From the NCBI RefSeq assembly GCF_036370855.1, contig NC_088128.1, positions 292,899 to 356,898 of the forward strand: DNA of 64,000 nucleotides, in the 5' to 3' direction. A program made the translations under genes and the position numbers. Within the stretch, counting starts at the first letter, position 1. The number at the start of each line of letters is the position of its first letter. The stretch comes from Dromaius novaehollandiae (taxonomy: Eukaryota). The notes under the pieces were generated by a model that saw only the letters and a list, made by a program, of their open reading frames with translations, searched no databases and was not told the DNA's origin. Below are positions 1-64,000 of the stretch, in pieces.

Positions 1-80
1 TCCCCAATGTCCCCCCAACGCCCTTGGTGTCCCCAAGCCCCACCATCTCCCCGGTGTCCCCAATGTCCCCCCCGCGGTAC
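1..80. repeat. Short-period C-rich array (gtcccc / aatgtcccc motifs) in the SRCAP intron
   Basis: Repeated gtcccc and caatgtcccc motifs run directly up to the exon at 81. Confidence 0.5.
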
Positions 81-250
81 CGGTTGACTTTCATCTTGAC
101 GGGCTTGGGCCGGGGCGGGGGGTCGGGGGCGGCGGCCACGTCCTCGAGGAGGCGGCGGGTGACGCGCCAGCGGGGCAGGAAGGTGTCGGCGGCGTAGCGC
201 GACGCCCGCCCCTCCAGCCCCACCAGGTCGAAGAGCCCCATGTCCACCTG
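81..250 (-). CDS. SRCAP: SRCAP coding exon (C-terminal end of the SNF2 helicase region, leading into the linker)
   Basis: The minus-strand translation is QVDMGLFDLVGLEGRASRYAADTFLPRWRVTRRLLEDVAAAPDPPPRPKPVKMKVN(R). It matches human SRCAP QRIDMGRFDLIGLEGRVSRYEADTFLPRHRLSRRVLLEVATAPDPPPRPKPVKMKVNR. Acceptor is ccccgcag at 251-253 and donor is CG|gtaccg at 80-79. The gene continues beyond the window start. Confidence 0.85.
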
Positions 251-1400
251 CTGCGGGGACAGGGACACCGCTGTCACCGCCACCGCCACCGCCACCGCCG
301 CACCCCAGAACCGCCGCCGTGGGGACGCGGGAGGCCCCCGAGGGACGAGGTGGCAGCTGCGCCCGTCACGTGGGGCGCCGCGGTGGTGGCCACGGGGACG
401 TGAGGTGTCACCTACGGGCCCATGTGTCACCTACGGCCCCAGAACTGCCACCATGGGGACAGAGAGCTCGACATGGGAAGAAGGTGGCACCTATGTCCCG
501 AAAATTGCCACCGTGGGGAGGTGGGACCCCATCAAGGGACGAGGTGGCACCTGCGCCCGTCACGTGGGGCGCCGCGGTGGTGGCCACGGGGACGTGAGGT
601 GTCACCTACGGCCCCATGTGTCACCTAAGACCCCGTGTGTCACCTATGTCCCCATGTGTCACCTACAGCCCCAGAACTGCCACCACGGGGACAGACAGCT
701 CTGCCCGGGATGGAGGTGGCACCTATGTCCCCAAAATTGCCACCATGGGGACACGGGAGGCCCCTGAGGGACGAGGTGGCACCTGCGCCCGTCACGTGGG
801 GCGCCGCGGTGGTGGCCACGGGGACGTGAGGTGTCACCTACGGCCCCATGTGTCACCTACGGCCCCGTGTGTCACCTATGTCCCCATGTGTCACCTACAG
901 CCCCAGAACTGCCACCACGGGGACAGACAGCTCTGCCCGGGATGGAGGTGGCACCTATGTCCCCAAAATTGCCGCCATGGGGACACGGGAGGCCCCTGAG
1001 GGACGAGGTGGCAGCTGCGCCCGTCACGTGGGGCGCCGCGGAGGTGGCCACGGGGACGTGAGGTGTCACCTACGGCCCCAGAACTGCCACCATGGGGACA
1101 GAGAGCTCAACGTGGCAAGAAGGTGGCACCTATGTCCCCAAAATTGCCACCATGGGGACGCGGGAGGCCACCGAGGGACGAGGTGGCACCTGAGCCCGTC
1201 ACGTGGGGCACCGCGGTGGTGGCCACGGGGACGTGAGGTGTCACCTATGGCCCCATGTGTCACCTACGGCCCCGTGTGTCACCTACGGCCCCAGAACTGC
1301 CACCGCGGGGACAGAGAGCTCTGCCCGGCATGGAGGTGGCACCTACGTCCCCAAAACTGCCACCGTGGGGGACACAGGGACGGCCGGGGCCGAGCACGTG
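251..1400. repeat. Tandem array with a unit of about 175-235 bp in an SRCAP intron
   Basis: The motif ccgtcacgtggggcgccgcggtggtggccacggggacgtgaggtgtcacctacgg recurs at about 363, 557, 790, 1022 and 1197. Stop-free ORFs on both strands here are artefacts. Confidence 0.8.
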
Positions 1401-2273
1401 GTGCTCTGATCAGTGCGGCTGACACTCCCCGTCACCCTCCCCGCGTTGTCACCGCATTGTCACCACGCCGGTAGCCTGTGTCCCCTCCGTGTCCCCAAGA
1501 CCCTCCCCACGGGGTCCAGAGGACCCGGATGAGGCTGAGGACGCAGCGCCCCGCCAGGTCCCGACCATGTGACCCGCACTCCCTGTCACCCTCCCCATGT
1601 TGTCACTGCGTTGTCACCGCGCCGGTAGCCTGTATCCCCTCCTGTCACCCCCAGCGTCCCCGTGGGGGCCGCAGGGACGGCCGGGACCGAGGACACGGCG
1701 CCCCGCCAGGTCCCAGCCACGCGGCCGGCGCTCCCCATCACCCTCCCTGTGTTGTCACTGCGTTGTCACCGCGTTGTCACCGCGCCGGTAGCCTGTATCC
1801 CCTCCTGTCACCCCCAGCGTCCCCGTGGGGGCCGCAGGGACGGCCGGGACCGAGGACACGGCGCCCCGCCAGGTCCCAGCCATGCGGCCAGCGCTCCCCA
1901 TCACCCTCCCTGTGTTGTCACTGTGTTGTCACCGCGTTGTCACCGCGCCGGTAGCCTGTATCCCCTCCTGTCACCCCCAGCGTCCCCGTGGGGGCCGCAG
2001 GGACGGCCGGGACCGAGGACACGGCGCCCCGCCAGGTCCCAGCCATGCGGCCAGCGCTCCCCATCACCCTCCCTGTGTTGTCACTGTGTTGTCACCGCGT
2101 TGTCACCGCGCCGGTAGCCTGTGTCCCCTCCTGTCACCCCCAGCGTCCCCGTGGGGGCCGCAGCGACGGCCGGGACCGAGGACACGGCGCCCCGCCAGGT
2201 CCCAGCCACGCGGCCGGCGCTCCCCGCCCCCCTCCCCGCCGTGTCCCCCCCCGTCCCCGGGGCGCGGCGTCAC
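1400..2273. repeat. Tandem array with a 163-bp unit, about 5 copies, in an SRCAP intron
   Basis: ccggtagcctgt recurs at 1467, 1623, 1786, 1949 and 2112, giving an exact 163-bp period. Confidence 0.85.
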
Positions 2274-2460
2274 CTTGAAGGGGTCGGGGTCGAGGGCGCG
2301 CAGCACGAGGGAGGCGGTGACGAAGCAGATGCCCTCGGTGATGAAGGGCGAGTGGATGGGCCGGGGGTCGAAGAGGTTGGGGTGGTTGCACACCTTGCGC
2401 AGCTGCATCAGCACGTTGATGACGCTCATGAAGTGGCCGGTGGCCAGGGTGGCCTTGGTG
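2274..2460 (-). CDS. SRCAP: SRCAP coding exon (helicase C-terminal lobe)
   Basis: Translation is (S)TKATLATGHFMSVINVLMQLRKVCNHPNLFDPRPIHSPFITEGICFVTASLVLRALDPDPFK. It matches human TTTKETLATGHFMSVINILMQLRKVCNHPNLFDPRPVTSPFITPGICFSTASLVLRATDVHPLQ. Acceptor is ccccgcag and donor is AAG|gtgacg. Phase is consistent with both neighbours. Confidence 0.9.
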
Positions 2461-42169: not shown

Positions 42170-43235
42170 TGTGCTTGGCGTGTGCTTGGCGTGTGTAGCA
42201 CGCCCAGCCCCCAGGAGTGACGTGGCGCGACCCAAACGCCTTCAGGCAACACGGATGGACACGGGGAGGCACTGGGAGCCATGGCGGGACACACAACACG
42301 CATGTGCTTAGCATGTGCTTAGCGTGTGCAGCCCCCCAGGAGCGATGTGACGTGACCCAAACACCTCAGGGCAACACGGATGGACAGGGGGAGGCGCCAG
42401 GGGCCACGGTGGGACACACAACATGCATGTGCTTAGCATGTGCTGCACGCCCGGCCCCCCAGCAGCGACACGGCACGACCCAAACACCTCGGGGCAACAC
42501 GGATGGACACGGGGAGGCACCGGGAGCCATGGCAGGACACAACATCCATGTACTTAGCATGTGCTTAGCATGTGCTGCACGCCCAGCCCCCCAGGAGTGA
42601 CATGGCGTGACCCAAACACCTCCAGGCAATACGGATAGACACGGGGAAGCACTGGGAGCCATGGCGGGACACACAACACCCGTGTGCTTAGCGTGTGCTT
42701 AGCGTGTGCTGCACGCCTGGCCCCCCAGGAGCAACACGGCGCAACCCAAATGTCTCGGGGCAACATGGATGGACACGGGGAGGCATCAGGGGTCATGGCA
42801 GGACATGCAACACCCATGAACTTAGCGTGTGCTCAGCATGTGCAGCCCCCAAAAGTGACGTGGCGTGACGCAGACACCTCAGGGCAACACAGATGGACAC
42901 AGGGCAACACCAGGGGCCACGGCGGGACATGTAACACCCATGACCTTAACATGCGCTTAGCGTGTGCTTGGCATGTGCGGCACACGCAGGCCCCAGGAGT
43001 GACCCAAACGCCTCTGGGCAGCCCGGATGGACACAGGGGGGCACCAGGGGCCACGGCAGGACACGCAACCCCCCGGCGCTTAGTGTGTGCTTAGCATGTG
43101 CTTAGCATGTGCAGCCCCCAGAAGCGATGCAGCGCTACCCAAACGCCTCGGGGCAACACGGATGGACACAGGGAGCTGCCGGGGGCCACGGGGGGGACAC
43201 GCAACACCCGTGCGCTTAGCGTGTGCTTGGCGTGC
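42170..43235. repeat. Tandem array with a unit of about 120 bp (cgtgtgcttagcgtgtgctgcacgcc...gggcaacacggatggacacggggaggcac)
   Basis: The period runs 42296, 42417, 42536 and onward. Confidence 0.8.
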
Positions 43236-43242
43236 GGCCCAC

Positions 43243-43416
43243 CTTGCCGTCGATGATGGCGGAGAGGCTGAGGTAGTCGAAGATCTCGGTGCAGTAGCGC
43301 CAGACGGTGACGGAGCCGTACTTGCGCAGACACTCGTCGTAGAAGCCGTACACCTGCGTGATCTGCCGGCTCTCGTGGTTGCCCCGGATCAGCGTGATGC
43401 GGTCGGGGTAGCGCAC
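43243..43416 (-). CDS. PPP4C: PPP4C coding exon (metallophosphatase core, GNHE motif)
   Basis: Translation is [58 protein letters not shown]. It is identical to human PPP4C. Acceptor is gccgcag and donor is AAG|gtgggccgc. Confidence 0.9.
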
Positions 43417-43424
43417 CTGCGGCG

Positions 43425-44210
43425 CCGCACGCCTGGGTCCTCCCGGACGCCTGGGTCCTCCCGGACGCCTGGGCCCCGACTCCTCTCGCCCTCCCGGACG
43501 CCTGGGCCCTGACCCCTCTCGCCCTCCTGCATGTCTGGGTCCTCCCGCACGCCTGGGCCCCGACCCCGGACGCCTGGGCCCCCAGTGTTGTCCTCCCGGA
43601 CGCCTGGGCCCCTTCTCCTCTCGCCCTCCTGGACGCCTGGGCCCCTTCTCCTCTCGCCCTCCCGGACGCCTGGGCCCCTTCTCCTCTCGCCCTCCCGGAC
43701 GCCTGGGCCCCTTCTCCTCTCGCCCTCCCGGACGCCTGTGCCCCTTCTCCTCTCGCTCTCCCGGACGTCTGGGCCCCTTCTCCTCTCGCCCTCCCGGACG
43801 CCTGGGCCCCTTCTCCTCTCGCCCTCCCGGACGCCTGGGCCCCTTCTCCTCTCGCCCTCCCGGACGCCTGGGCCCCTTCTCCCAGACACCTGAGCCCCCT
43901 CTTGCCCCCCCTCCCCCGGCTGCCTGGGCCCCTCTCCCGGACGCCTGGGCCCTTTCTCTCCCTGGACACTTGGTGCCCACCTGGACGCCTGGGCCCCTCC
44001 CCTCGTCCTCCCGGATGCCTGGGCCCTCCATGGACACCTGGGTCCCTTCTCCCCCCGGACGCTTGGTGCCCACCTGGACGCCTGGGCCCCCTCTCCCGGA
44101 CGCCTGGGCCCCCTCTCACCCCGCCTGGCCGCCTGGGCCCCTCCCCTCGCCCTCCCGGACGCCTGGGCCCCCTCCCCCGGACGCCTGGGCCCCCTCCCCC
44201 GGACGCCTGG
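43425..44210. repeat. Minisatellite with a 33-bp unit (ccttctcctctcgccctcccggacgcctgggcc), a member of the CCGGACGCCTGGGCCC family
   Basis: About 20 copies are present. The core ccggacgcctgggccc also occurs at 47625-48885 and, reverse-complemented, at 61585-62340. Confidence 0.85.
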
Positions 44211-44216
44211 GCCCAC

Positions 44217-44318
44217 CTTGAGGGCGAGGAGCAGCAGGAAGGTCTCGACGCTGTAGAAGCCCCGGTCCACGAAGTCGCCCATGAACAGGTAGTTGGTCTC
44301 GGGGACGTCGCCCCCCAC
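44217..44318 (-). CDS. PPP4C: PPP4C coding exon (GDxVDRG motif)
   Basis: Translation is [34 protein letters not shown]. It is identical to human PPP4C. Acceptor is ccccccag and donor is AAG|gtgggc. Confidence 0.9.
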
Positions 44319-44324
44319 CTGGGG

Positions 44325-45175
44325 GGCAATTGGGGGGGGGCGATTAGGGAGGGGGGCAATTAGGGGCCGGGGGGGGCAATTAGGGGCCAGGGGGGGCAAT
44401 TAAGGGGGGTAATTGCAGACTATGGGGCAATTTGGGGGGTAATTAGGGCCAGAGAAAGCAATTGGGGGGGGTGATTTGAGGCTGGGGGGAGGCAATTAGT
44501 GATTGGGAGGGGCAATTAGGAGGGTAATTAACCCTGGGGGGGGCAATTAAGGGATGGGGGGGGCAATTGGGCGGTTATGTGGGGCTGAGGGAACAATTAG
44601 GAGGGTAATTAAGCCTGGGGGGGGCAATTGAGAGCCAGTGGGGTAATTGGGGGGGTTATTTGGGCCTAAGGGGACAATTAGGGGGGTAATTAGGCCCGGG
44701 GGGGGGGGCAATTAAGCATTGGGGGGGGGCAATTCAGACCCAGGGGGGCAATTGGGGGGGTTATGTGGGGCTGAGAGGACAATTAGGGGGGTAATTAGGG
44801 GCTCTGGGGCAATTAGGAATTGGCAGGGGCAACCGGGGGGGGGGTAATTAGGGGTTGGGGGGGCAATTAGGGGGATAATTGGGGGCAATTAGAGGCTGCG
44901 GGGGCAACTGGAGGAGCAACTAGGGGGTGGGGGGGGCAATTAGTGGGGGCAATTAGGGACTGGGGGGAACTGGGGGTAATGGGGGGGGGCAATTAAGAAC
45001 TCGGGGGGGGGGCAATTAGTGACCACAGGAGTAATTTAGGATCAGGGAAGCAATTACAGGAGCAATTAACAGTTGGGGGGCAATTAGGCCCTGGGTGGGG
45101 GCAATTAAACACCTGGGGGGGGCAATTAGGCATGGGGGGGGCAATTAAACACCTGGGGGGGGCAATTAGGGGGGG
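44325..45175. repeat. G-rich array based on ggggggcaattagg, unit about 20-30 bp
   Basis: gcaattag or gcaattgg occurs more than 30 times. Confidence 0.85.
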
Positions 45176-45183
45176 CGACTCAC

Positions 45184-45234
45184 CCGGAAAAGCTCCTTGA
45201 GGTCATAAAACTGCCCGTGGATGTCGCCGCACAC
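45184..45234 (-). CDS. PPP4C: PPP4C coding exon (GDxHG motif)
   Basis: Translation is [17 protein letters not shown]. It is identical to human PPP4C. Acceptor is ttccag and donor is CGG|gtgagtcgc. Confidence 0.9.
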
Positions 45235-45380
45235 CTGGAAGGGGGCAAAAAAGGGGACGTCAGGGGGGGCAAATCCGCCTAATTACCCCCCCCCAGGGCT
45301 TAATTACCCCCCTGGGGGGTTAATTACTCCCTCTAGGGTCTAATTGCCCCCCCCCGGGGGTCTAATTGCCCCCCGCTCAC

Positions 45381-45432
45381 CGTCACGGGCGAGTCGACCC
45401 GCTGGACGTTGCTCTCCTCCACCAGAATCTCC
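45381..45432 (-). CDS. PPP4C: PPP4C coding exon
   Basis: Translation is (R)EILVEESNVQRVDSPVT. It is identical to human PPP4C. Acceptor is tcccgcag and donor is ACG|gtgagcgg. Confidence 0.9.
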
Positions 45433-45559
45433 CTGCGGGACGGCGCCTCGTTAGCGGGGTTAATTGCCCCGCGGGGGGGTTAATTACCCCGCGGGGGGGT
45501 TATTCACCCCCTGGGGGGGTTATTTACCCCCTGGGGGGGTTCTTTGCCCCCCCCGGTAC

Positions 45560-45661
45560 CTGGCTTTGGCGCAGAGGGCCTTCACCTCGCTCTCCTTGAT
45601 GAGCTCGCAGCGGCGCAGCTGCTCGATCTGCCGGTCCAGGTCGCTCGGCTCCCCCATGGCC
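45560..45661 (-). CDS. PPP4C: PPP4C first coding exon (ATG at 45657..45655)
   Basis: Translation is [32 protein letters not shown](R), ending in donor AG|gtaccgg. Human has [33 protein letters not shown]. An acceptor-like cag at 45662-45664 suggests there is an upstream non-coding exon. Confidence 0.85.
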
Positions 45662-45664
45662 CTG

Positions 45665-47400
45665 CCCCGGGGGGGCAATTAATTATTAATTACCCCCCCT
45701 AATTACCCCACGCATTAATTAACCCCTCCCACGGGGGGTGCTTGGTAGGGGCCCCCCGGCTTGAGCTGCTTGGGGCCATGAAATGGCTGCCCGGGGGGGC
45801 AATTACCCCCCCCCCCCCGGGGCTAATTGCCCCCCTCCCAAGGTAACTGCCCCCCCCCGGGGCTAATTGCCCCCCTCCCAAGGTAACTGCCCCCCCCCGG
45901 GGCTAATTGCCCCCCAGGGCTAATTGCCCCCCTCCCAAGGTAACTGCCCCCCCCCGGGGCTAATTGCCCCCCTCCCAAGGTAACTGCCCCCCCCCGGGGC
46001 TAATTGCCCCCCTCCCAAGGTAGCTGCCCCCCCCGGGGCTAATTGCTCCCCTCCCAAGGCAATTGCCCTCCCAGGGCCCCCAATTGCCCCCCCCCAAAGC
46101 TCCCAGGCCCCAATATTGCCCCCCCAGCAGCCCCCAAATGCCTAATTTGCCCCCAAACCCCCCAATGGCCCCCAAACACCCCCGATTCTCCCCCCAACCC
46201 CCTCAGTAACCCCGAAACCCCCCCAATTTGCCCCCAAATCCCCCCAATTTGCCCCCAAACCCCCCCCAGCAGCCCCCAAATACCCCCAATTCTCCCCTCC
46301 CCACCCCCAGTGGCCCCTAAATCCCCTCAATTCTCCCCAAATCCTCCCAATTTCCCCCCAACCGCCCCCAAATCGCCCCAATTCCCCCCCAGGTGCCCCC
46401 CAAATCCCCCCGTTGTCCCCAACAGCCCCCAACCCCCCCCCAAAAGCTCCGCAAAGGCCCCCAGCGGACCCGAAACCACCCCAACTGCCCCCAAATCCTC
46501 CAGGTGCCCCCGAGCCACCCCCAAAAGCCCCCGAATTCGCCCCAAAAAGCCCCAGAACCCCTGAATTCACCCCAAAAGGCCCATCAAAAACCCGAGTTTG
46601 TCCCGAATTCGCACCAAAAGGCCCCGAATTCGCCTCAAATTCTCCCCAAAAAGCTCCAAAAGGCCCCAAAATCTCCCCAAAAGGCTCTGAAATCCCCTGA
46701 ATTCGCCCCCAAATCCCCCGAATTCGCCCCGCAAGGCCCCCAAATCCCCTGAATTCGCCCCAAATTCTCCCCAAAAGGCCCCGAATTTGCCCCAAAAGGC
46801 CCCGATACCCCCCGAATTCGCCCCCAAAGGCCCCGAAACCCCCCGAATTCGCCCCAAAAGGCCCCGAAACCCCCCGAATTCGCCCCAAAAGGCCCCGAAT
46901 TCGCCCCAAAAGGCCCCGAATTCGCCCCAAAAGGCCCCCAAACCCCCCAAATTCGCCCCAAAAGGCCCCGAATTCGCCCCAAATTCGCCGCAAAAGGCCC
47001 CGAAATCCCCCGAATTCGCCCCAAAAGGCCCCGAATTCGCCCCAAAAGGCCCCGAAACCCCCCGAATTCGCCCCAAAACCCCCCGAATTCGCCCCAAAAG
47101 GCCCCGAATTCGCCCCAAAAGGCCCCCAAATCCCCCGAATTCGCCCCAAAAGGCCCCGAATTCGCCCCGCAAGGCCAAATCCCCCGAATTCGCCCCAAAA
47201 GGCCCCGAATTCGCCCCAAATTCGCCGCAAAAGGCCCCGAAATCCCCCGAATTCGCCCCAAAAGGCCCCGAAATCTCCCCAAAGCGCCCCGAAACCCCCC
47301 GAATTCGCCCCAAAAGGCCCCGAAACCCCCCGAATTCGCCGCAAAGCGCCCCGAAATCCCCCGAATTCGCCCCAAAAGGCCCCGAATCGCCCCCAGCCCC
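45665..47400. repeat. Two arrays upstream of the PPP4C coding region
   Basis: From 45665 to 46100 the unit is about 58 bp (ggggctaattgcccccctcccaaggtaactgccccccccc). From 46100 to 47400 the unit is about 24-31 bp (ccccgaattcgccccaaaaggcc). Both are C-rich on the plus strand. Confidence 0.85.
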
Positions 47401-47625
47401 CCCCGAACCGCCCCGCTTCGCACCCGGCCGCGACCGTCCCCCGCCGCCGCGCGTCACTTCCGGGCCGCGGCCCCGGCGGAAGCGGAAGTGCCCAGGTTCC
47501 CCCCCCCACACACACGCACATACAGCGCCCCGGAGACGGGGGAGGGGTGTGAGTGAGGGCGGAAGTGACGTGTGAAGGTGGCGCCTGCGGGCGTGACGTC
47601 ACAGGGTGCGCGCCAGCGGCGGGAG
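47400..47625 (-). promoter_or_regulatory. PPP4C: Candidate PPP4C promoter / 5'UTR exon, with ETS + CRE housekeeping-type motifs
   Basis: This unique island sits between two arrays. ETS cores are cacttccgg at 47455, cggaagcggaagtg at 47476 and ggcggaagtgacgtg at 47548. A palindromic CRE gtgacgtcac lies at 47594-47603. A (CA)n tract runs 47508-47525. A minus-strand donor-like GGAAG|gtgacg lies at about 47450. I could not resolve the exact TSS or donor. Confidence 0.4.
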
Positions 47626-48885
47626 GAGGCTCCTGGGGGCTCGGACGCCTGGGCCCCTCCCAGATGCCTGCCCTTCCCCCCCCCCGGACACCTGGGCCCC
47701 CAGATGCTTAGTTCTTCCCCGGACGCCTGGGCCCCTCCGTAGACACCTGGGTCCCCCGGACGCCTGGGCCCCTCCTCGGACACCTGGGCCCCTCCTCGGA
47801 CGCCTGGGCCCCTCTGTAGACACCTAGGTCCCCCGGACGCCTGGGCCCCCCCCAGATGCCTGGGCACCCCTGGCCGGACGCCTGGGTCCTTTCCTGGGTT
47901 CCCTCCCCCACCCGGACACCTGGGTCCCCCGGACACCTGGGCCCCTCCCAGATGCCTGCCCTTCCCTCCCCCCGGACACCTGGGCCCCCAGACGCTCAGT
48001 TGTTCCCCGGACGCCTGGGCCCTTCCGCAGACGCCTGGGTCCCCCGGACGCCTGGGCCCCTCCGTAGACACCTAGGTCCCCCGGACGCCTGGGCCCCCCC
48101 CAGATGCCTGGGCACCCCCACCCGGACGCCTGGGCCCCTCCGTAGACACCTGGGTCCCCCGGACGCCTGGATCCCTCCCGGACGCCTGGGCCCCTCCTGG
48201 ACGCTTAGTCCTTCCCCGGACGCCTGGGTCCTTCCCCAGATTCCCTCTCCCCCGGACGCCTGGGCCCCTCCGTAGACACCTGGGTCTGCCGGACGCCTGG
48301 GTCCCCCGGACGCCTGGGCCCCTCCCAGATGCCTGCCCCCCCCACCCGGACGCCTGGGCCCCTCCGTAGACACCTAGGTCCCCCGGGCGCCTGGGCCCCA
48401 CCCGGACGCCTGGGCCCTTCCGCAGACGCCTGGGTCTGCTGGACGCCTGGATCCCTCCCGGACGCCTGGGCCCCTCCTGGACGCTTAGTCCTTCCCCGGA
48501 CGCCTGGGTCCTTTCCTGGGTTCCCTCCCCCGGACGCCTGGGCCCCTCCTGGATGCCTGGGCCCCTCCCAGACATCTGGGTCCCCCAGACGCTCAGCCCC
48601 CCCCCCCCCGACGCCTGGGCCCCTCCCGGACACCTGGGCCCTTCCCCGGACGCCTGGGCCCCTCCCGGACACCTGGGCCCTTCCCCGGACACCTGGCTCC
48701 CCTGGACGCTTAGTCCTTCCCCGGACGCCTGGGCCCTTCCCCAGATTCCCTCCCCCCTGCCCGGACGCCTGGGCCCCTCTGTAGACACCTAGATCCCCCG
48801 GACACCTGCCCCCACCCCGGGACGCCTGGGCCCCTCCCGGACGCCTGGGCCCCTTTCCCGGACGCCTGGGCCCCCAAAGAGGCAG
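47625..48885. repeat. ALDOA-PPP4C intergenic array, unit about 18 bp (ccggacgcctgggcccctcc) with a higher-order period of about 250 bp
   Basis: The array belongs to the same 16-mer core family as 43425-44210. Confidence 0.85.
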
Positions 48886-49024
48886 GTGCAGAGGCAGTTT
48901 CCGTTTATTGCCGCGAGTCGGGGAGGCCGCGCGTGTCGCGGCGTGTCGCGGCGTGTCATGACGTGTCACCGCGTGTCGTGACGTGTCACCGCGTGTCACG
49001 GCGCGGCCCGGACGCCGGGGCCCC
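48885..49024 (-). terminator. ALDOA: ALDOA 3'UTR with a polyA signal (AATAAA on the minus strand at 48909..48904)
   Basis: The plus strand reads ccgtttattgccgcgag. The 3'UTR carries six copies of a 12-mer, gcgtgtc(a/g)(c/t)g(g/a)c, at 48925-49010, which includes TGACGTG half-CRE motifs. Confidence 0.7.
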
Positions 49025-51995
<2,971 letters not shown>

Positions 51996-52001
51996 ACGTA
52001 C

Positions 52002-52201
52002 CAGGGCGCGCTTGACGTACTCCTCCTGGGCGGCCTTGGTGTTGTCGCGCTTGCCGCCCCAGGCGCGCAGGGCCGAGGCCTGCAGCGCCCGCCCGTAGGA
52101 GAAGGTCAGGGCCCAGGGCCGCCCCAGCGGGCAGCGGTTGATGGCGTTGAGGTTCAGCGACGCCTCCTCCTCGCTCTGGCCCCCGGACAGGAAGGTGATG
52201 C
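52002..52201 (-). CDS. ALDOA: ALDOA coding exon
   Basis: Translation is (G)[66 protein letters not shown]. It matches human [66 protein letters not shown]. Acceptor is cgcgcag and donor is CTG|gtacgtgg. Confidence 0.9.
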
Positions 52202-52204
52202 CTG

Positions 52205-54060
52205 CGCGGGGACACGGGGACGTCACGCCGGGGGGGGACGGGGACGCGGTGATGGGGACGTGGCCATGGGGACAGGGACATGGCCATGGGGACGTGCGGA
52301 TGGGGACCAGGACGTGGCCATGGGGACAGGATGGGAACCTGGACATGGCCATGGGGACGTGGGGATGGGGACCAGCACGTGGCCACAGAGACATAGCCAT
52401 GGGGATGGGGACGTGGCCATGGGGACAGGGAGGTGGCCATGGGGACGTGGGGATGGGGACCAGAACGTGGCCACAGGGACATAGCCATGGGGATGGGGAC
52501 GTGGCCATGGGGACAGGGACATGGTCATGGGGACGTGGGGATGGGGACCAGGACGTGGCCATGGGGACAGGATGGGAACCTGGACATGGCCATGGGGACG
52601 TGGGGATGGGGACCAGCACGTGGCCACAGAGACATAGCCATGGGGATGGGGACGTGGCCATGGGGATGGGGACATGGTCATGGGGACGTGGGGATGGGGA
52701 CCAGCACGTGGCCATGGGGACAGGATGGGAACCTGGACATGGCCACGTCCCCGTGGCCATGAGGACATGGGGACGGGGACCAGCACGTGGCCACAGGGAC
52801 GCAGCCATGGGGATGGGGACATGGCCATGGGGACGTGGCCATGTGGATGGGGACATGGCCATGGGGACAGGGAGGTGGCCGTGGCCATGGGGACCAGAAC
52901 ATGGCCACAGGGACATGGCCATGGGGATGGGGACACAGCCACGGGGACGCGGCCATGGGGACCAGGACACGGCTACAGGGACGTGGCCATGGAGACAGGA
53001 TGAGAACCTGGACGTGGCCATGGGGACGTGGCCATGGGGACAGGGAGGTGGCCATGGGGACGTGGGGATGGGGACCAGGACGCGGCCACAGGGATGCAGC
53101 GATGGGGACATGGTCATGGGGACAGGATGGGAACCTGGACATGGCCACGGGGACGTAGCCATAGGGATGGGGACATGGCCATGGGGACGTGGGGATGGGG
53201 ACCAGGACGCGGCCTTGGAGACATGGGGCGTGGCCATGGGGACAGGGAGGTGGCCATGGGGACAGGTACCAGGACGTGGCCACAGGGACGTGGTCATGGG
53301 GACGGGGACATGGCCATGGGGACACGGCCATGGGGACGGGATGAGAACCTGGCCATGGCCATGGGGACGTGGGGATGGAGACGTGGGGAAGGGGACCAGG
53401 ACGTGGCCACAGGGACGTGGTCATGGGGACAGGAAGGTGGCCATGGGGATGGGGAGATGGGGACAGAGCCATGGGGACCAGGACACAGCCACAGGGACAC
53501 GGCCATGGGGACAGGGACACGGGGACACAGTCCTGGGGACAGGAACATGGCCACGGGGACACAGCCAAGGGGACAGGAACGTGACATGGGGATGTGGCAT
53601 GGGGACACGGCCCTGGGGACAGGAACATGGCCACGGGGACACGGCCCTGGGGACACGACCATGCGGACACGGCCCTGGGGACAGGAACATGGCCACGGGG
53701 ACACGGCCATGGGGACATGGTCATGGTGACGGGGACATGGCCATGGGGACACAGCCCTGGGGACAGGAACGTGGCATGGGGACACGGCCCTGGGGACAGG
53801 AACGTGGCCACAGGGACACGGCCCTGGGGACACGACCATGGGGACAGGAATGCCACCACAAGGACACAGCCATGGCCATGGGGACAGAGGTGACATGGGG
53901 ACACAGCCATAGGCACACCAACAGCACGGTGACATGGCCAGGGGGTGGGACACAGCCCCGGGGACAGGGACACGGCCACGAGGACAGCACAGAGATGCCA
54001 CCACAGGGCCACCGCAGCAAGACGACCCCGACGCCATGACGCTGGTGTCCCCAGGGCCAC
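52205..54060. repeat. G-rich array with a unit of about 21 bp (ggacgtggccatggggacagg) and higher-order periodicity; it resumes at 54250-54325
   Basis: ggccatgggga occurs more than 60 times. Confidence 0.85.
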
Positions 54061-54069
54061 CGCGGCTCA

Positions 54070-55230
<1,161 letters not shown>

Positions 55231-55238
55231 TGACCGAC

Positions 55239-55399
55239 CTGCTGGCAGATGCTGGCGTAGCGGGCGAGGACGTTGGCGTTCTCCAGGATGGCCAGGCGCG
55301 ACGGCGTGTGCTCCGAGATCTTGAGGACGCAGCGCCACTTGGCGAAGTCGGCCCCGTCCTTCTTGTACTGGGCGCAGCGCTCCATCAGCCCGTCCAGGC
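55239..55399 (-). CDS. ALDOA: ALDOA coding exon
   Basis: Translation is (G)[53 protein letters not shown]. Human has [54 protein letters not shown]. Acceptor is cccag and donor is CAG|gtcggtca. Confidence 0.9.
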
Positions 55400-56385
55400 C
55401 TGGGCGCGCGGGGACACCGTGGGGACACGGCGGGGGGACACCGGGGCGGGGGACACGGCGGGGAACGTGCGGGGAGAGCCGCGGGGACGGCGGTGGGATC
55501 GCGTTGGGGATGGCGGTGGGGACGCAGGTGGCATTAGGGACATGGGGACGGCCTTGGGGACACAGGGAAGGTCTTGGGGACATGGAGGTGGCACAAGGGA
55601 CATGGGGACAGCCTTGGGGACACGGATAGCGGCGGGGAACGTGCGGGGAGAGCCACAGGGACGGTGGTGGGATCGCGGGGACGCAGGTGGCATTAGGGAC
55701 ATGGGGACAGCCTTGGGGACGCAGGGATGGCCTTGGGGACGTGCAGACAGCCTTGGGGACATGCAGGTAGCACATGGGACACAGTGACAGCCTTGGGGAC
55801 ACGGGTGGCCTCGGGGACACGGGGACGGCCTCAGGGACATAGAGATGGCATTGAAGACACAGGAATCATGTTGGTGACATGCAAGTACCATGTGGGACAC
55901 GGGGACAGCCTTGGGGACAGCTTTGGGGACACCGGCGGGGAATGTGCAGGCAGAGCCACGGAAATGGCATTGGGAACAGCCTTGGGGACATCGGGATGGC
56001 CTTGGGGACACGAGGACAGCCTTGGGGACGTGGGGACAGCGCTGGGGACGCGGAGGAGGCACGGGGGACGTGGGGACGGCCTCGGGGACACGGGGACGGC
56101 CGCGGGGACACACACGCACACGACTAGGGACACGGGGAGGCCGACGAGGACACAGAGACAACGTTGGCCACCGCTCGGGGACACAAGGACCCCCTCGGGG
56201 ACCTGGGGACCCCCTTGGGGACACAAAGACCCCCTTGGGGACACGGGGAAGCCCTTGGGGACCTCCTGAGGACCTGGGGACCCCTCGGGGACACTTGGTC
56301 ACCCTCAGGGAGACCCTTGTGGACCCACCAAGGACCCGGGGACACCCTTGGGGACCTGGGGACACCTTTGGGGACGGTCACGCAC
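55400..56385. repeat. G-rich array with a short unit (ggggacacggggacggccttggggaca)
   Basis: ggggac(a/g) and ccttgggga are repeated many times. Confidence 0.8.
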
Positions 56386-56440
56386 CTTGGGTGGTGGTCT
56401 CGCCATTGGTGCCAGCGAGGGGGACGACCCCTTTGTCCAC
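56386..56440 (-). CDS. ALDOA: ALDOA coding exon (55 nt)
   Basis: Translation is VDKGVVPLAGTNGETTTQ(G). It is identical to human ALDOA. Acceptor is cctag and donor is G|gtgcgtgac. Confidence 0.9.
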
Positions 56441-56444
56441 CTAG

Positions 56445-58535
56445 GAGGGGACATGGGGACACGGTCACCGGGAGCCCCAATGTCCCCCCCAACGTCCCTC
56501 GGACCCGCAGCCACCGCTGTCCCCAGGTCCCCTCTGTCCCCACGTCCCCTCTGTGCCCCATCTCCGTGTCCCCCTGATGTCCCCAAGTCTCCCTGAGCTT
56601 GTTCCACCCCAAATTCCCATGTCCCTTCATGTCCCCCAATGTCCCCTCAACGTCTCCACGTTCCCCAACGTCCCTGTGGCTCTTCCATGTCCCCCAATGT
56701 CCCCTCAACATCTCCATGTCCCCCAGTGTCCCTGCAGCCCTTCCACGTGCCCCAATGTCCCCTCAACGTCTCCATGTCCCCCAGTGTCCCCTCAATGTCT
56801 CCATGTCCCCCAATGTCCCTGCGGCCCTTCCACGTGCCCCAACGTCCCCTCAATGTCTCCATGTCCCCCAGTGTCCCCTCAACGTCTCTACGTCCCACAT
56901 CCCTGTGTCCCCTCAACATCTCCACGTCCTCCAACGTCCCTGTGGCCCTTCCATGTCCCCCAATGTCCCCTCAACGTCTCCATACCCAACGTCCCTGTGT
57001 CTTCTCAACTTCTCCATGTCCCCCAATGTCCCTGTGGTCCTTCCACGTCCCCCAATGTCCCCTCAATGTCTCCACGTCCCCCAACATCCCTGAGTCTTCT
57101 CAACTTCTCCATGTCCCCCAATGTCCCTGTGGCCCTTCCACCTCTCCACGTCCCCCAACGTCCCCTCAATGTCTCCACGTCCACCATCCCTGTGTTCCCT
57201 CAACATCTCCACGTCCCTGTGGCCCTTCCATGTCCCCCAGCGTCCCCTCAACATCTCCACGTCCCACAACGTCCCCTCAACGTCTCCACAACATCTCCAC
57301 GTCTCCTAACATCCCTGCGTGCTTTCTATGTCCCCTCAAGCTCCCTTCAATGTCTCCACGTCCCCCAACGCCCCCTCAACGTCTCCACGTCCCCCAACGT
57401 CCCCTCAACGTCTCCACGTCCCACACCCCTGCGTCCCCTCAACGTCTCCACGTCCCCCAACGTCCCCTCAACGTCTCCACGTCCCCCAACGTCCCCCCTC
57501 AACGTCTCCACGTCCCCTCAATGTCTCCACGTCCCCCAACGTCCCCTCAACCTCTCCACGTCCCCCAACGTCCCCTCAACGTCTCCACGTCCCACAACGT
57601 CCCCTCAACGTCTCCACGTCCCACATCCCTGCGTCCCCTCAACGTCTCCACGTCCCCCAACGTCCCTTCAACGTCTCCACGTCCCCTCAATGTCTCCACG
57701 TCCCCCAACGTCCCCTCAACGTCTCCACGTCCCACATCCCTGCGTCCCCTCAACATCTCCGCGTCCCCCAACGTCCTTGTGACCCTTCCACGTCCCCCAA
57801 CGTCCCCTCAACGTCTCCACGTCCCCCAACGTCCCCTCAACGTCTTCATGTCCCCCAACGTCCCCTCAACGTCTCCACGTCCCCCAATGCCCCCTCAACG
57901 TCTCCACGTCCCACATCCCTGTGTCCCCTCAACATCTCCGCGTCCCCCAATGTCCCTGTGACCCTTCCACGTCCCCCAACGTCCCCTCAACCTCTCCACG
58001 TCCCCCAATGCCCCCTCAACCTCTCCACGTCCCACATCCCTGCGTCCCCTCAACATCTCCGCGTCCCCCAATGTCCCTGTGACCCTTCCACGTCCCCCAA
58101 CGTCCCCTCAACGTCTCCACGTCCCCCAGTGTCCCCTCAACATCTCCACGTCCCACATCCCTGCGTCCCCTCAACATCTCTGCGTCCCCCAACGTCCTTG
58201 TGACCCTTCCACGTCCCCCAACGTCCCCTCAACGTCTCCACGCCCCCCAATGTCCCCCGTCTTCACGTCCCCCAACGTCCCCTCAACGTCTCCACGTCCC
58301 CCAACGTCTCAACGTCTCCACATCCCCTCAACGTCCCCTCAACGTCCCCTCAACGTCTCCACGTCCCCTCAACGTCTCCACGTCCCCCAATGTCCCCTCA
58401 ACCTCTCCACGTCCTCCAACGTCCCCTCAACCTCTCCGCGTCCCACATCCCTGCGTCCCCTCAACATCTCCGCGTCCCCCAACGTCCTTGTGACCCTTCC
58501 GCGTCCCCCAACGTCCCCCCCCGCGTCCCCGTGCC
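56445..58535. repeat. Minisatellite with a unit of about 30 bp (cccctcaacgtctccacgtcccccaacgt)
   Basis: More than 60 copies are present. The array is C-rich on the plus strand. Confidence 0.85.
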
Positions 58536-58538
58536 CAC

Positions 58539-58750
58539 CTTGATGCCGACGAGGCCGCCCTTGGCGCGGATGACGGCGGGGAAGGGGCGCCCGTCGTCCG
58601 CCTTCTGGTAGAGGGTCTCGTGGAAGAGGATGACGCCGCCGATGCAGGGGTCCACGCGCTGGTCGGCCGTGAAGAGCAGCTGCCGGTACCAGCGCCGGTT
58701 CTCCTCCGTGTTCTCCGCCCCCACCGAGCTCAGCCGCTTGGCGATGCTGC
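58539..58750 (-). CDS. ALDOA: ALDOA coding exon
   Basis: Translation is (G)[70 protein letters not shown]. Human ALDOA has [70 protein letters not shown]. This segment rules out ALDOC. Acceptor is cccggcgcag and donor is AAG|gtgggcac. Confidence 0.9.
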
Positions 58751-58754
58751 CTGC

Positions 58755-60200
58755 GCCGGGGACGCCCGCGTCACCCCCCCCGGGGGCCACCGCGGGGTCC
58801 CCGCGGCCACCCGGGGCCACCCAGGACCCCCCAGTGTCATCTGCCGTCGCTGCCATCGCCCATGGCCACCTTGGTGGAACCCGTGCTCTTGTTGCGCCTA
58901 CTTCTGCCAAGGTTTGCAGGGCTCCCGGTGGCCCCTGGGGCCACCCAGTGTCACCTCATGGCACCTGGGGCCACCCAAGACCCTCTAGTGTCACCTCATG
59001 GCACCTGGGGCCACCCAAGACCCTCCGGTGGCACCCGGTGGCACCTGCCATCGCCCATGGCCACCTTGGTGGCACCCATCCTCTTGTTGCACCTACCGCT
59101 GCCAAGGCTCCCAGTGCTCCCAGTGACACCTGGGGCCACCTTGGGTCACCCAGTGTCACCTCATGGCACCTGGGGCCACCCAGGACCCCCCAATGTCACC
59201 TGATGGCAGCCGGGGCCACCCAGGACCCTCCGGTGGCACCCGGTGGCACCTGCCATCGCCCATGGCCACCTTGGTGGCACCCATCCTCTTGTTGCACCTA
59301 CCGCTGCCAAGGCTCCCAGTGCTCCCAGTGACACCTGGGGCCACCCAGGACCCTCCAGTGTCACCCAATGGCACCTGGGGTCACCCAGGACCCCCCAGGG
59401 TCACCTGATGGCACCTGCCATCACCCATGGCCACCTTGGTGGCACCCGTCCTCCTGCTGCACCTACTGCTGCCAGGGTTTGCAGGGCTCCCAGTGCTCCC
59501 AGTAGCACCTGGGGCCACCCAGTGGTGTCCCAGTACCAACTGGGGTCACCCCGTGGCACCTGGGGTCACCCCATGTCTCCTTGGTGCCACCCTGAGGTCA
59601 CCTGATGTCACCCGGTGCCACCCAATAGCACTTGGGGCCACGCAGTGCCCTCCCAGTGTCACCCAGTGTCCTCCTAGTCCCCTCCCAGTGCCCTCCCAGT
59701 GTCACCCAGTGTCCTCCCAGTAGCTTCAAGTGCCAGCTGCTGCCCCCCAGTGCTCTCCCAGTGCCTCCCAGTCCCCCCCAGTGCCTCCCAATTCCCTCCC
59801 AGTGCTCCCAGTCCCTTCCCAGTGCTTCCCAGTTCCCTCTGATCATCTCCCAGTGCCTTCCCAGTGCTTCCTGCTACCTCCCAGTGTCACTCAGTGTTCT
59901 CCAAGTCACTCCCAATCCCCTCCCAGTGCTCCCAGTGCCTTCCAGTCCTCTCCTGGTGCCACCCAGTGCTCCCCAGTCCCCTCCAAGTGCCCCCCAATCC
60001 CTTCCCAGTGCCTCCCACTACTCCCCAGTTCCCCCTAGTCCCCTCCCAGTGCTCCCAGTGCCCTCCAATCCCTTCCCAGTCCCTTCCCAGTGCCTCCCAC
60101 TACACCCCAATGCCACCCAATTCCCCCCAGTGCCCTCCGGGCACCCCCCAGCCCCTTCCAGTGCCCCCCAAACCCCTCCCAGTGCCTCCCAGTGCTCCCA
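58755..60200. repeat. Arrays based on ggggccacccaggaccc / cacctgggg, about 60 bp, then on ccctcccagtgcc, about 12 bp
   Basis: The ccagtgcctccc 12-mer continues into the next array. Confidence 0.8.
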
Positions 60201-61460
60201 GTGCCTCACCAGTGGACTCATCAGCGGCGAGGATGCCCTTGCCGGGGGCGACGATGCGCAGGGCGACGGCGGCGAGCTCCCCCAGTGCCTCCCAGTGCCT
60301 CCCAGTGCCCTCTAAACCCCTCCCAGTGCCCTCCAAACCCCTCCCAGTCCCCTCCCAGTGCCCTCCCAGTGCTCCCAGTGCCTCACCAGTGGACTCATCG
60401 GCGGCGAGGATGCCCTTGCCGGGGGCGACGATGCGCAGGGCGATGTCGGCGAGCTCCCCCAGTGCCTCCCAGTGCCTCCCAGTGCCCCCCAAACCCCTCC
60501 CAGTGCCCCCCAAACCCCTCCCAGTCCCCTCCCAGTGCCTCCCAGTGCTCCCAGTGCCTCACCAGTGGACTCATCGGCGGCGAGGATGCCCTTGCCGGGG
60601 GCGACGATGCGCAGGGCGATGTCGGCGAGCTCCCCCAGTGCCTCCCAGTGCCCTCTAAACCCCTCCCAGTGCCCCCCAAACCCCTCCCAGTCCCCTCCCA
60701 GTGCCTCCCAGTGCTCCCAGTGCCTCACCAGTGGACTCATCGGCGGCGAGGATGCCCTTGCCGGGGGCGACGATGCGCAGGGCGATGTCGGCGAGCTCCC
60801 CCAGTGCCTCCCAGTGCCTCCCAATGCCCCCCAAACCCCTCCCAGTGCCCCCCAAACCCCTCCCAGTGCCTCCCAGTGCTCCCAGTGCCTCACCAGTGGA
60901 CTCATCGGCGGCGAGGATGCCCTTGCCGGGGGCGACGATGCGCAGGGCGATGTCGGCGAGCTCCCCCAGTGCCTCCCAGTGCCTCCCAGTGCCCTCTAAA
61001 CCCCTCCCAGTGCCCCCCAAACCCCTCCCAGTGCCCTCCAAACCCCTCCCAGTGCCCCCCAAACCCCTCCCAGTCCCCTCCCAGTGCCTCCCAGTGCTCC
61101 CAGTGCCTCACCAGTGGACTCATCGGCGGCGAGGATGCCCTTGCCGGGGGCGACGATGCGCAGGGCGATGTCAGCGAGCTTCCCCAGTGCCTCCCAGTGC
61201 CTCCCAGTGCCCCCCAAACCCCTCCCAGTGCCCCCAAACCCCTCCCAGTGCCCTCCAAACCCCTCCCAGTGCCCTCCCAGTGCTCCCAGTGCCTCACCAG
61301 TGGACTCATCGGCGGCGAGGATGCCCTTGCCGGGGGCGACGATGCGCAGGGCGATGTCGGCGAGCTCCCCCAGTGCCTCCCAGTGCCTCCCAATGCCCCC
61401 CAAACCCCTCCCAGTGCCCCCCAAACCCCTCCCAGTGCCTCCCAGTGCTCCCAGTGCCTC
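60200..61460. repeat. ALDOA: Tandem array of about 165-217 bp holding seven truncated copies of the 3' end of the ALDOA first coding exon, each with an intact 5' splice site
   Basis: Copies lie at about 60204, 60381, 60558, 60723, 60888, 61105 and 61292. In each copy the minus strand reads [24 protein letters not shown]|gtgaggc, with minor variants in copies 1 and 6. The ATG and acceptor are absent, and ccagtgcctccc 12-mers flank each copy. Confidence 0.85.
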
Positions 61461-61462
61461 AC

Positions 61463-61582
61463 CAGTGGACTCATCGGCGGCGAGGATGCCCTTGCCGGGG
61501 GCGACGATGCGCAGGGCGATGTCGGCGAGCTCCTTCTTCTGCTCGGGGCTCAGCGCCGGGTACTGGTGCGGCATGGCGGCTC
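61463..61582 (-). CDS. ALDOA: ALDOA first coding exon (ATG at 61574..61572)
   Basis: Translation is [37 protein letters not shown](G). Human ALDOA has [38 protein letters not shown]. Acceptor is cccccgcag at 61583 and donor is G|gtgaggc at 61462. Confidence 0.9.
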
Positions 61583-61584
61583 CT

Positions 61585-62340: not shown

Positions 62341-63830
62341 CCCCCAATGGGGCGGAGCGGGACCCCCCCAAAACTGCCCCCCCCAACCCCAAAATCTCCC
62401 CCCCCGGCCCCAAATCTGCCCCCCCCGGCCCCCAAATCGGCCTTTTCAGCCCCAAATCTGGCCCCCGCCCTAAAATCTGCCTTTTTAGCCCCGAATCTGC
62501 CCCCAAGTCCTAAAATCCACCTTTTTAGCCCCAAATCTGCTCCTCTGGACCCCAAATGCACCTTTTCAGCCCCAAATCTGCCCCCAAATCCTAAAATCCA
62601 TCTTTTCAGCCCCAAATCTGCTTCTCTGGACCCCAAATCCACCTTTTTAGCCCCAAATCTGCCTCCAAATCCTAAAATCCACCTTTTTAGCCCCAAATCT
62701 GCTCCTCTGGACCCCAAATCCACCTTTTTAGCCCCAAATCTGCCCCCAGAATCCCGCATCTGTTCCCTCAGCCCCAAAATCTACCTTTTTAAGCCCAAAT
62801 CTGCCCCCAGAGTCCCAAATCCTCCTCCGCAGCCCTGAAATCTGCCTTTTTAGCCCCAAATCTGCCCCCAAAGTCCCCAATCCACCTCTTCAGCCCCAAA
62901 TCTGCCCCCCAGCCCCAAAATCTGCCTTTTTAGGCCCAAATCTGTGCCTGGAGTCCCCTATCTGCCCTCCCAGCCCTAAAATCTGCCTTTTTAGGCCCAA
63001 ATCTGGACTCCGCCCCAAAATCTGCCTTTTTAGCCCCAAACCTGCCCCCCAGCCCCAAAATCTGCCTTTTTCGCCCCAAATCTTCCCCCCAACCCCCAAA
63101 TCTACCTTTGCAGCCCCAAACCTGCCCCCCCGGCCCCAAAATCCGCCTTTTTCGCCCCAAATCTTCCCCCTAGCCCCAAAATCTACCTTTGCAGCCCCAA
63201 ACCTGCCCCCCAGCCCCAAAATCCGCCTTTTTCGCCCCAAATCTTCCCCCTAGCCCCCAAATCTACCTTTGCAGCCCCAAACCTGCCCCCCAGCCCCAAA
63301 ATCCACCTTTTTCGCCCCAAATCTGCCCCCTAGCCCCCAAATCTACCTTTGCAGCCCCAAACCTGCCCCCCCAGCCCCAAAATCCGCCTTTTTCGCCCCA
63401 AACCTGCCCCCCCAGCCCCCAAATCTACCTTTGCAGCCCCAAACCTGCCCCCCCAGCCCCAAAATCCGCCTTTTTCGCCCCAAACCTGCCCCCCCAGCCC
63501 TCAAATCTACCTTTGCAGCCCCAAACCTGCCCCCCCGGACCCAAAATCCGCCTTTTTCGCCCCAAATCTTCCCCCTAGGCCCAAATCTACCTTTGCAGAC
63601 CCAAACCTGCCCCCCCGGCCCCAAAATCCGCCTTTTTCGCCCCAAATCTTCCCCCTAGCCCCCAAATCTACCTTTGCAGCCCCAAACCTGCCCCCCCAGC
63701 CCCAAAATCCGCCTTTTTCGCCCCAAATCTTCCCTCTAGCCCCCAAATCTACCTTTGCAGCCCCAAACCTGCCCCCCCGGCCCCAAAATCCGCCTTTTTC
63801 GCCCCAAACCTGCCGCCCCCCCCGCGCCCC
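62340..63830. repeat. Array with a unit of about 80 bp (ccccaaatctgccttttagccccaaatctgcccccaaatcctaaaatccacctttttagcc)
   Basis: ccccaaa(a)tc(t/c)(g/a)cc is repeated many times. The array is C-rich on the plus strand. Confidence 0.85.
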
Positions 63831-63832
63831 AC

Positions 63833-63915
63833 CTGGTCTCGCGCCGGGGCTGCAGCGAGCGCGCGGGGCGGGGCGGGGGGGGGGGAGGCCGTGACGTCAG
63901 AGCGCGCGGGCGGAA
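63833..63915 (-). other. ALDOA: Putative ALDOA non-coding exon 1; the 5' end is uncertain
   Basis: A minus-strand donor GAGACCAG|gtggggcg lies at 63833/63832. It pairs with the acceptor at 61583 across an array-filled intron. Confidence 0.4.
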
Positions 63916-64000
63916 GCGGCGGGAGGGGGCGGGGGGGCGCTTAAAGGGGCCGCGGCGCCGAGCGCTGAGTCACCGGGCGGGGGGGGGGGATTTGGGGTGC
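63835..64000 (-). promoter_or_regulatory. ALDOA: Candidate ALDOA promoter region
   Basis: A CRE ccgtgacgtcag lies at 63889-63900. GC boxes are present. A TTAAAG-type box sits inside gcttaaaggggccgcg at 63938-63953. An AP-1-like ctgagtcacc lies at 63965-63974. The window ends at 64000. Confidence 0.4.

Follow-up and report, generated by a model that had tools for sequence, protein, structure and literature searches.

PPP4C and SRCAP adjoin without a detectable gene between them in a gap-free segment of a probable emu microchromosome: probable removal of the TBX6-YPEL3-MAPK3-CORO1A block from its ancestral place in birds

The 64,000-bp stretch of the emu genome analysed here (Dromaius novaehollandiae, contig NC_088128.1, positions 292,899 to 356,898 of the forward strand; hereafter the window) carries ALDOA, PPP4C and SRCAP, all on the minus strand and in that order, and no gene could be detected in the short interval that separates PPP4C from SRCAP. 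In our view, the window very probably represents a correctly assembled segment of a GC-rich, dot-type microchromosome, from which the block of genes that once lay beside PPP4C, namely TBX6, YPEL3, MAPK3 and CORO1A, was removed by a combination of loss and relocation. As part of this explanation, the segment is the counterpart of chicken chromosome 38 and of human 16p11.2, and the three genes are true orthologues of their human namesakes as well as true neighbours.

In human 16p11.2, the order runs from ALDOA and PPP4C through TBX6, YPEL3, GDPD3, MAPK3 and CORO1A to FBRS, SRCAP (at about 30.7 Mb) and, further along, KAT8. Emu and human hence share the order and the common orientation of ALDOA, PPP4C and SRCAP, but differ in what lies between the latter two, i.e. 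about 0.6 Mb with more than 25 genes in human compared to 7 kb without a gene in emu. The spliced models confirmed the collinearity on one strand that the original prediction had put forward, together with its placement of the PPP4C stop at 37336, and the SRCAP 5' exon that it had located at about 30220 is consistent with a predicted non-coding first exon that has a conserved donor and lies in a CpG island. The distance given for this interval, about 5.5 kb, was however too short, as the PPP4C stop codon (37336) and the SRCAP exon-1 donor (30220) are 7.1 kb apart; roughly 5 kb separate the probable PPP4C poly(A) region (at about 35.9 kb) from the SRCAP promoter island (at about 31.1 kb). ALDOA and PPP4C are complete, and of SRCAP the 5' third is present, from about 30.6 kb to base 1.

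The inference that the window stems from a GC-rich microchromosomal region is supported: the GC content amounts to 67%, the contig that carries the exact ALDOA protein measures 3.31 Mb, and the chicken orthologues reside on dot chromosome 38. Other hallmarks of dot chromosomes are likewise present, with 81% of the window covered by tandem repeats according to Tandem Repeats Finder (TRF), introns and spacers made up of such repeats, and a first ALDOA exon that is stuttered seven times. The repeats largely spare the coding sequence, as only 172 of the 3875 modelled exon bases fall under them.

Human protein sequences, used as leads only, served to locate the exons by tblastn, after which the splice sites were fixed. 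The ALDOA coding region (49025..61574, minus strand) consists of eight coding exons that specify 364 amino acids, with GT-AG at every intron (exons 1-4 at 61574-61463, 58750-58539, 56440-56386 and 55399-55239; exons 5-8 at 54414-54331, 54245-54071, 52201-52002 and 49120-49025). The spliced product is letter for letter identical to the RefSeq entry XP_064355584.1, 'fructose-bisphosphate aldolase A [Dromaius novaehollandiae]'. In a phmmer comparison with the PDB, ALDOA chains reached 746-760 bits, compared to 690 bits for ALDOC (1xfb) and 570-582 bits for ALDOB, and 30 of the 31 C-terminal residues are identical to human ALDOA. Judged from these comparisons, we firmly regard the gene as the ALDOA orthologue, nearer to ALDOA than to ALDOC or ALDOB over its full length.

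The PPP4C coding region (37336..45657, minus strand) likewise comprises eight coding exons with GT-AG introns, specifies 307 amino acids and has its stop ending at 37336 (exons 1-4 at 45657-45560, 45432-45381, 45234-45184 and 44318-44217; exons 5-8 at 43416-43243, 42144-42018, 40220-40031 and 37465-37336). Its product exactly matches the RefSeq entries XP_064355586.1, XP_067170997.1 and XP_068779423.1, among which the exact matches are named for Struthio camelus and Apteryx mantelli, meaning that the protein is identical in ostrich and kiwi; XP_064355586.1 appears to be the emu protein, since its accession is numbered directly after that of emu ALDOA. The product is 98-99% identical to proteins named as catalytic subunit of protein phosphatase 4 (PP4), and 303 of the 307 residues agree with human PPP4C. 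Against the PDB it scored 486 bits with PP2A-C alpha and 318 bits with PP1, a one-sided comparison in that the 60 matches listed include no chain of PP4C. The assignment of this gene as the PPP4C orthologue can, on the basis of these similarities, be regarded as firm.

SRCAP leaves the window at base 1, so that residues 1 to about 996 lie inside it. The first coding exon (25204..25368, minus strand) begins with the ATG at 25368 and is followed by a GTGAGT donor after 25204, and the exons between 1 and 18363 (minus strand) correspond to about residues 100-996 of human SRCAP, which include the HSA domain and the N-lobe of the SNF2 ATPase. The exons identified there lie at 18363-18178, 16247-16107 (the HSA region), from 14211 onwards, at 6652-6584, 6507-6330, 4487-4351, 4272-4103, 4018-3826, 2674-2538, 2460-2274 and 250-80, the exon end at 80 aligning to human residue 996 both in the human sequence and in the PDB chain 6igm_H. 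A spliced piece of 414 amino acids (6652-80) matched residues 583-996 of 6igm_H, human Helicase SRCAP, with 878.8 bits, compared to 451 bits for EP400, 487 bits for yeast SWR1 and about 320 bits for INO80, and the best-scoring database entries for the ATPase region are named helicase SRCAP. By these scores, we consider it firm that the gene is the SRCAP orthologue rather than an EP400, INO80 or SWR1 relative. As such, the concern that paralogues such as ALDOC or PPP2CA might have been mistaken for the named genes did not materialise, since the scores support orthology in all three cases.

The genes that follow PPP4C in human and in the anole, and that are absent in the emu window, are those of one avian missing syntenic block, comprising TBX6, YPEL3, MAPK3 and CORO1A (lizard block 20 and human block 19; Lovell et al., 2014, Genome Biol 15:565, Supplementary Table 1), whereas PPP4C itself was listed as present in birds. 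In the same study, the four genes are contiguous on scaffold GL343279.1 of the anole and are found at chr16:30.10-30.20 Mb in human. In zebrafish, ypel3 adjoins mapk3, and neither the gene nor the protein of erk1 was found in chicken and rhea (Busca et al., 2015). CORO1A and YPEL3 also appear in a published list of genes missing in all birds, with chr38 as their expected location, and single-gene reports on missing CORO1A, MAPK3 and TBX6 are older still. The proposed fit of the locus to the reported absence of MAPK3 and its neighbours is supported by these publications, and in our own database search with human MAPK3, the only bird proteins in the 120 best clusters were MAPK1, none bearing the name MAPK3.

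The snake locus provides the outgroup state. In the rattlesnake (L015), as in human, TBX6 comes next after PPP4C, its 3' exons lying on the opposite strand; in the window, PPP4C is present and no signal of TBX6, YPEL3, MAPK3 or CORO1A was found. One could speculate that the polarity is the reverse, i.e. that the bird order is ancestral and that some 0.6 Mb were inserted or expanded in the mammalian lineage. Indeed, much of the human interval is lineage-specific, with KRAB/C2H2 zinc-finger genes and the BOLA2/SLX1/SULT1A segmental duplications, and the SRCAP entries recovered from the database with the ATPase region were all short or partial, with no full-length reptile SRCAP among them from which the upstream neighbour in non-avian reptiles could have been read. 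However, we regard this possibility as improbable, given that the tail-to-tail arrangement of PPP4C and TBX6 is common to human and rattlesnake and that the block is contiguous in the anole, as are ypel3 and mapk3 in zebrafish, from which it follows that the breakpoint on the PPP4C side would be derived on the bird side.

In the loci of kiwi (L001) and ostrich (L002), ALDOA and PPP4C are followed by a large gene, without any intervening called gene, and the 10 kb downstream of PPP4C are collinear with emu (blastn, 70-87%); the aligned part begins in the PPP4C 3' flank, takes in the satellites and both islands of the spacer, and extends as far as the CpG island and first coding exon of SRCAP. 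Two passerine loci (L013 and L014, the latter of which we take to be Pseudopodoces humilis) resemble emu in the three genes, their order and strand, and in a cluster of the palindrome TCTCGCGAGA at the 5' end of SRCAP. The gene following PPP4C there encodes HSA, SNF2 and Helicase_C domains, the last of which was seen only in these annotated passerine SRCAP genes. In contrast to emu, the spacer of these loci measures only about 0.6 kb, in mostly short-read assemblies.

The suggestion that the locus is poorly assembled could not be upheld. A collapse or misjoin at the PPP4C-SRCAP junction, with the intervening genes residing in unassembled sequence, might be expected where 81% of the window is tandem repeat and in dot-chromosome regions that are notoriously hard to assemble according to the literature, and finch assemblies do disagree on the position of GDPD3. 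The window, however, is free of N, its two complete genes are intact and have canonical splice sites, the same junction and a homologous spacer in the same order recur in the independent kiwi and ostrich assemblies, and nine bird loci carry the motif cluster of the SRCAP promoter at a distance of 1-5 kb downstream of PPP4C. We hence consider an artefact of this kind very improbable.

The spacer itself is composed mainly of satellites. Tandem repeats make up 71% of it (TRF; coverage 0.74 for 31100-37335), which leaves no more than about 2 kb of non-repetitive sequence out of 7.1 kb, and satellite arrays occupy 31141..35699 except for the second of the CpG islands described below and a less repetitive stretch at about 33900-34700. 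When all six frames of 30001-37500 were scanned with Pfam, stop codons in the translations being replaced by X, no family was matched, although the power of these scans is limited, since the last PPP4C exon of 43 amino acids was missed as well and short exons could therefore escape. Searches by tblastn with human TBX6, YPEL3, MAPK3, CORO1A, GDPD3 and MYLPF gave no match anywhere in the window, and the few open reading frames (ORFs) in the non-repetitive part are rich in Pro, Gly and Arg, none of them looking coding. The description of this interval as satellites plus two CpG-type islands without a recognisable coding exon was accordingly sustained by TRF, Pfam, tblastn and inspection of the ORFs, and no exon of the TBX6, YPEL3 or MAPK3 type was detected in it by Pfam or tblastn, scans that are weak for short or very divergent exons. 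That the intervening genes still reside in the spacer, too GC-biased, short-exoned or divergent to be recognised, is barely credible to us: according to the literature, hidden genes of birds often have an extreme GC content and are divergent, and the spacer holds two conserved promoter-like islands, but the room left by the repeats is small, the only ORF of island 2 is broken by indels among emu, kiwi and ostrich, and the exons that encode T-box and kinase domains are long and show high conservation, the same TBX6 query having readily found three collinear TBX6 exons in the snake locus.

Besides the limited reach of these scans, several points weigh against the explanation we prefer. The absence of MAPK3 is contested, as the gene has been reported as annotated in chicken GRCg7b and as recovered from RNA-seq. 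In three finch-type assemblies, GDPD3 exons lie directly beside PPP4C and in differing orientations, namely downstream of PPP4C on the opposite strand and after conserved SRCAP promoter/exon-1 sequence in L008 (36540-43825, minus strand), and upstream of PPP4C on the same strand in L009 (2485-5842, plus strand) and L010 (4154-4273, plus strand). This placement may reflect a real finch-specific rearrangement or a misassembly, and the neighbourhood is not uniform across birds; a tblastx comparison of the finch GDPD3 regions with emu, kiwi and ostrich gave satellite and low-complexity matches only. The crocodilian scaffold discussed below belongs to a gapped short-read assembly and contains several N gaps.

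The removal of the block from beside PPP4C should not be pictured as a simple deletion, and to describe the locus as a compacted version of human 16p11.2 is an overstatement. In addition to GDPD3 in finches, CLN3 follows the TCTCGCGAGA promoter cluster in a passerine locus (L011), and in the crocodilian locus (L003, GCA_000455745.1, which we take to be Alligator sinensis), SPNS1 lies at 14908-18987 on the plus strand, 3 kb downstream of PPP4C (245 bits for SPNS1 vs 186 for SPNS2). Human SPNS1 is about 1 Mb away and on the other side of ALDOA, and on chicken chr38 the gene is 1.2 Mb from PPP4C. The 3' side of PPP4C may hence already have been rearranged before birds. The order on the telomere-to-telomere (T2T) chicken chr38 is EIF3C, MAZ, TUFM, ATP2A1, SPNS1, SLC5A2, MFAP4, KAT8, PPP4C and ALDOA, which is rearranged relative to human. 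The placements of GDPD3, SPNS1 and CLN3 and the chr38 order, together with the reports on MAPK3 and on CORO1A and YPEL3, are what lead us to interpret the bird arrangement as loss plus relocation.

The following sequence of events can be imagined. In the ancestral amniote, PPP4C would have stood tail-to-tail with TBX6, followed by YPEL3, possibly GDPD3, MAPK3 and CORO1A, an order that human, anole and rattlesnake would have kept. In the lineage leading to birds, the block from TBX6 to CORO1A would then have been removed from this position, some of its genes being lost outright and others being moved by intrachromosomal rearrangement. As a consequence, the CpG-island promoter of SRCAP would have come to lie about 5-7 kb downstream of PPP4C, and locally expanding satellites ('sequence stuttering') could later have filled the spacer and the introns. 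The timing of the removal and the division of the block between loss and relocation are aspects that we infer rather than observe.

Parts of this picture were already known: the missing block has been in the literature since 2014, dot chromosomes, gene loss and stuttering have been described in chicken, and the emu genes are in RefSeq. A literature search found no paper on the adjacency of PPP4C and SRCAP in birds, and what the present analysis adds is a clean, gap-free view of the junction in a palaeognath. It indicates that TBX6, YPEL3, MAPK3 and CORO1A are very probably gone from their ancestral place beside PPP4C and not merely concealed in an assembly gap, and it would pin one breakpoint to the 5-7 kb between the 3' end of PPP4C and the SRCAP promoter. 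It thereby bears on the debate about missing versus hidden avian genes, in which it supports the published conclusion and does not change it. The comparison of snake, crocodilian and finch further suggests that archosaurs have rearranged the 3' side of PPP4C recurrently.

Compared to the study by Lovell et al. (2014), in which the absence was inferred from short-read assemblies and the junction remained unseen, the flanks PPP4C and SRCAP are here joined without a gap in three palaeognaths. The gap in birds is also wider than the published block, since it includes GDPD3 as well, along with all genes that the human map shows as far as FBRS.

The best-described counterpart is the T2T chicken chr38, where PPP4C lies at 1.99 Mb, ALDOA at 2.05 Mb and KAT8, on the SRCAP side of PPP4C, at 1.59 Mb (Huang et al., 2023, PMC9974502; PMC12954441). 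Both loci share the adjacency of PPP4C and ALDOA, a high GC content, satellite-filled introns and exon stuttering, and CORO1A, YPEL3, DOC2A, KCTD13, BCL7C and ORAI3 are missing from the chicken locus (PMC9974502; PMC12954441). The emu genes are, however, considerably more compact (8.3 kb vs 32 kb for PPP4C and 12.5 kb vs 55 kb for ALDOA), and whereas both ALDOA and PPP4C are stuttered in chicken, only ALDOA exon 1 is so in emu among the exons tested. SRCAP is not mentioned in the chicken chr38 paper and its supplements.

Upstream of the SRCAP coding sequence, the region 30221..31140 (minus strand) is predicted, from sequence motifs, CpG content and conservation, to be the CpG-island promoter of SRCAP together with a putative non-coding exon 1. 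The island (about 30.2-31.1 kb) has a GC content of 0.78-0.91 and a CpG observed/expected ratio (o/e) of 1.1-1.4. The predicted exon would end at the donor at 30220, which reads CCCAG followed by GTAAGATGGCGGCG (also given as CCCAG followed by GTAAGATGG) and is identical in kiwi and ostrich, with flanks that are about 79-83% conserved even in passerines. The island also carries the YY1-type motif AAGATGGCGGC as well as ZNF143-like motifs.

The most conspicuous feature of this island is a set of eight exact copies of the palindrome TCTCGCGAGA at 30599-31065, i.e. within 470 bp, compared to 0.01 expected; no copy occurs elsewhere in the window outside the SRCAP CpG island, and the spacers between the copies are not obvious repeats. 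In the literature, this palindrome is associated with BANP, Kaiso and DYRK1A. Nine bird loci, which range from palaeognaths to passerines, have such a cluster, of 7-17 copies, 1-5 kb downstream of PPP4C (L001 at 25808-26288, L002 at 25347-25816, L005, L007, L008, L009, L011, L013 and L014), and the annotated SRCAP gene of L013 and L014 begins at the cluster. None was found in the snake or crocodilian loci, which do not extend to SRCAP. One could speculate that the array, present in every bird lineage sampled, arose by selected amplification of a methylation-sensitive activator site, with islands 2 and 3 being surviving promoters of deleted genes or promoters of unannotated non-coding transcripts, a reading that we consider rather improbable. 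If true, the array would keep an essential housekeeping promoter open inside the satellite-dense chromatin of a dot chromosome.

Two further promoter-like islands lie within the spacer, both of them conserved in kiwi and ostrich without a conserved ORF. Island 2 (32780..33040, CpG o/e 0.9) contains the YY1-type motif AAGATGGCGGC and two CCAAT boxes, all of which are invariant in the alignment of emu, kiwi and ostrich. Its ORF (MAAAASAAPPPGRLLSSLKK...) was considered as a hidden first exon and ruled out, as it suffers frame-breaking indels in kiwi and ostrich, whereas the CCAAT and YY1 motifs that flank it do not vary; since this only ORF is broken between species, island 2 is more plausibly regulatory or non-coding than an exon. 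Island 3 (35700..35860) holds about five GC boxes (CCCCGCCCC) and two CCAAT boxes and is 76-84% conserved in kiwi and ostrich. The two islands could represent alternative start sites of SRCAP, promoters of long non-coding RNAs or relics of lost genes.

The probable 3' untranslated region of PPP4C is predicted to span 35900..37335 (minus strand) and includes a satellite at about 36100-37100. An A-rich tract with an AATAAA motif near 35905 stands at its end, and the segment 36060-35955 is conserved just downstream of PPP4C in passerine loci.

Stuttering in the window is found in ALDOA intron 1, where seven tandem copies of the last 71 nt of coding exon 1 occupy 60210..61368 (minus strand), 95.8-100% identical and about 165-215 bp apart (tblastn, blastn); no other exon tested by blastn showed it. 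Exon stuttering has been published for ALDOA and PPP4C of chicken (PMC12954441). Massive stuttering of PPP4C exons, in contrast to emu, is seen in the long-read passerine loci L005, L006, L007, L008, L009 and L012, in which PPP4C spans 24-33 kb and the introns next to three of its exons contain up to about 15 copies each of fragments of these exons (residues about 101-124, 159-177 and 237-268). The PPP4C genes of emu, kiwi and ostrich measure 8-10 kb and are free of it.

Satellites also dominate the remaining non-coding sequence. The intergenic spacer between ALDOA and PPP4C (45658..49024, 3.4 kb) is 80% tandem repeat (TRF) and contains no ORF with a coding look, and the SRCAP intron after the first coding exon is 95% covered by repeats between 18389 and 25180, with arrays of 29 copies of a 62-bp unit, 11 of a 240/486-bp unit and 19 of a 90-bp unit (TRF). 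The satellite families of the PPP4C-SRCAP spacer, such as the array at 31300-32220, occur in the same order and with 78-87% identity in emu, kiwi and ostrich, and as they are common to all three, the arrays would predate the divergence of these palaeognaths rather than being recent species-specific expansions.

A scan of the window with Rfam at gathering thresholds gave no match, so that no small nucleolar RNA such as SNORA30 was detected. Most 2-kb windows show a negative GC skew on the plus strand (cumulative -5.5), which means that the sense strand of ALDOA, PPP4C and SRCAP is G-rich almost throughout, satellites included. Such a G-rich sense strand fits with reports of sequence prone to G-quadruplex or R-loop formation on the dot chromosomes of birds.

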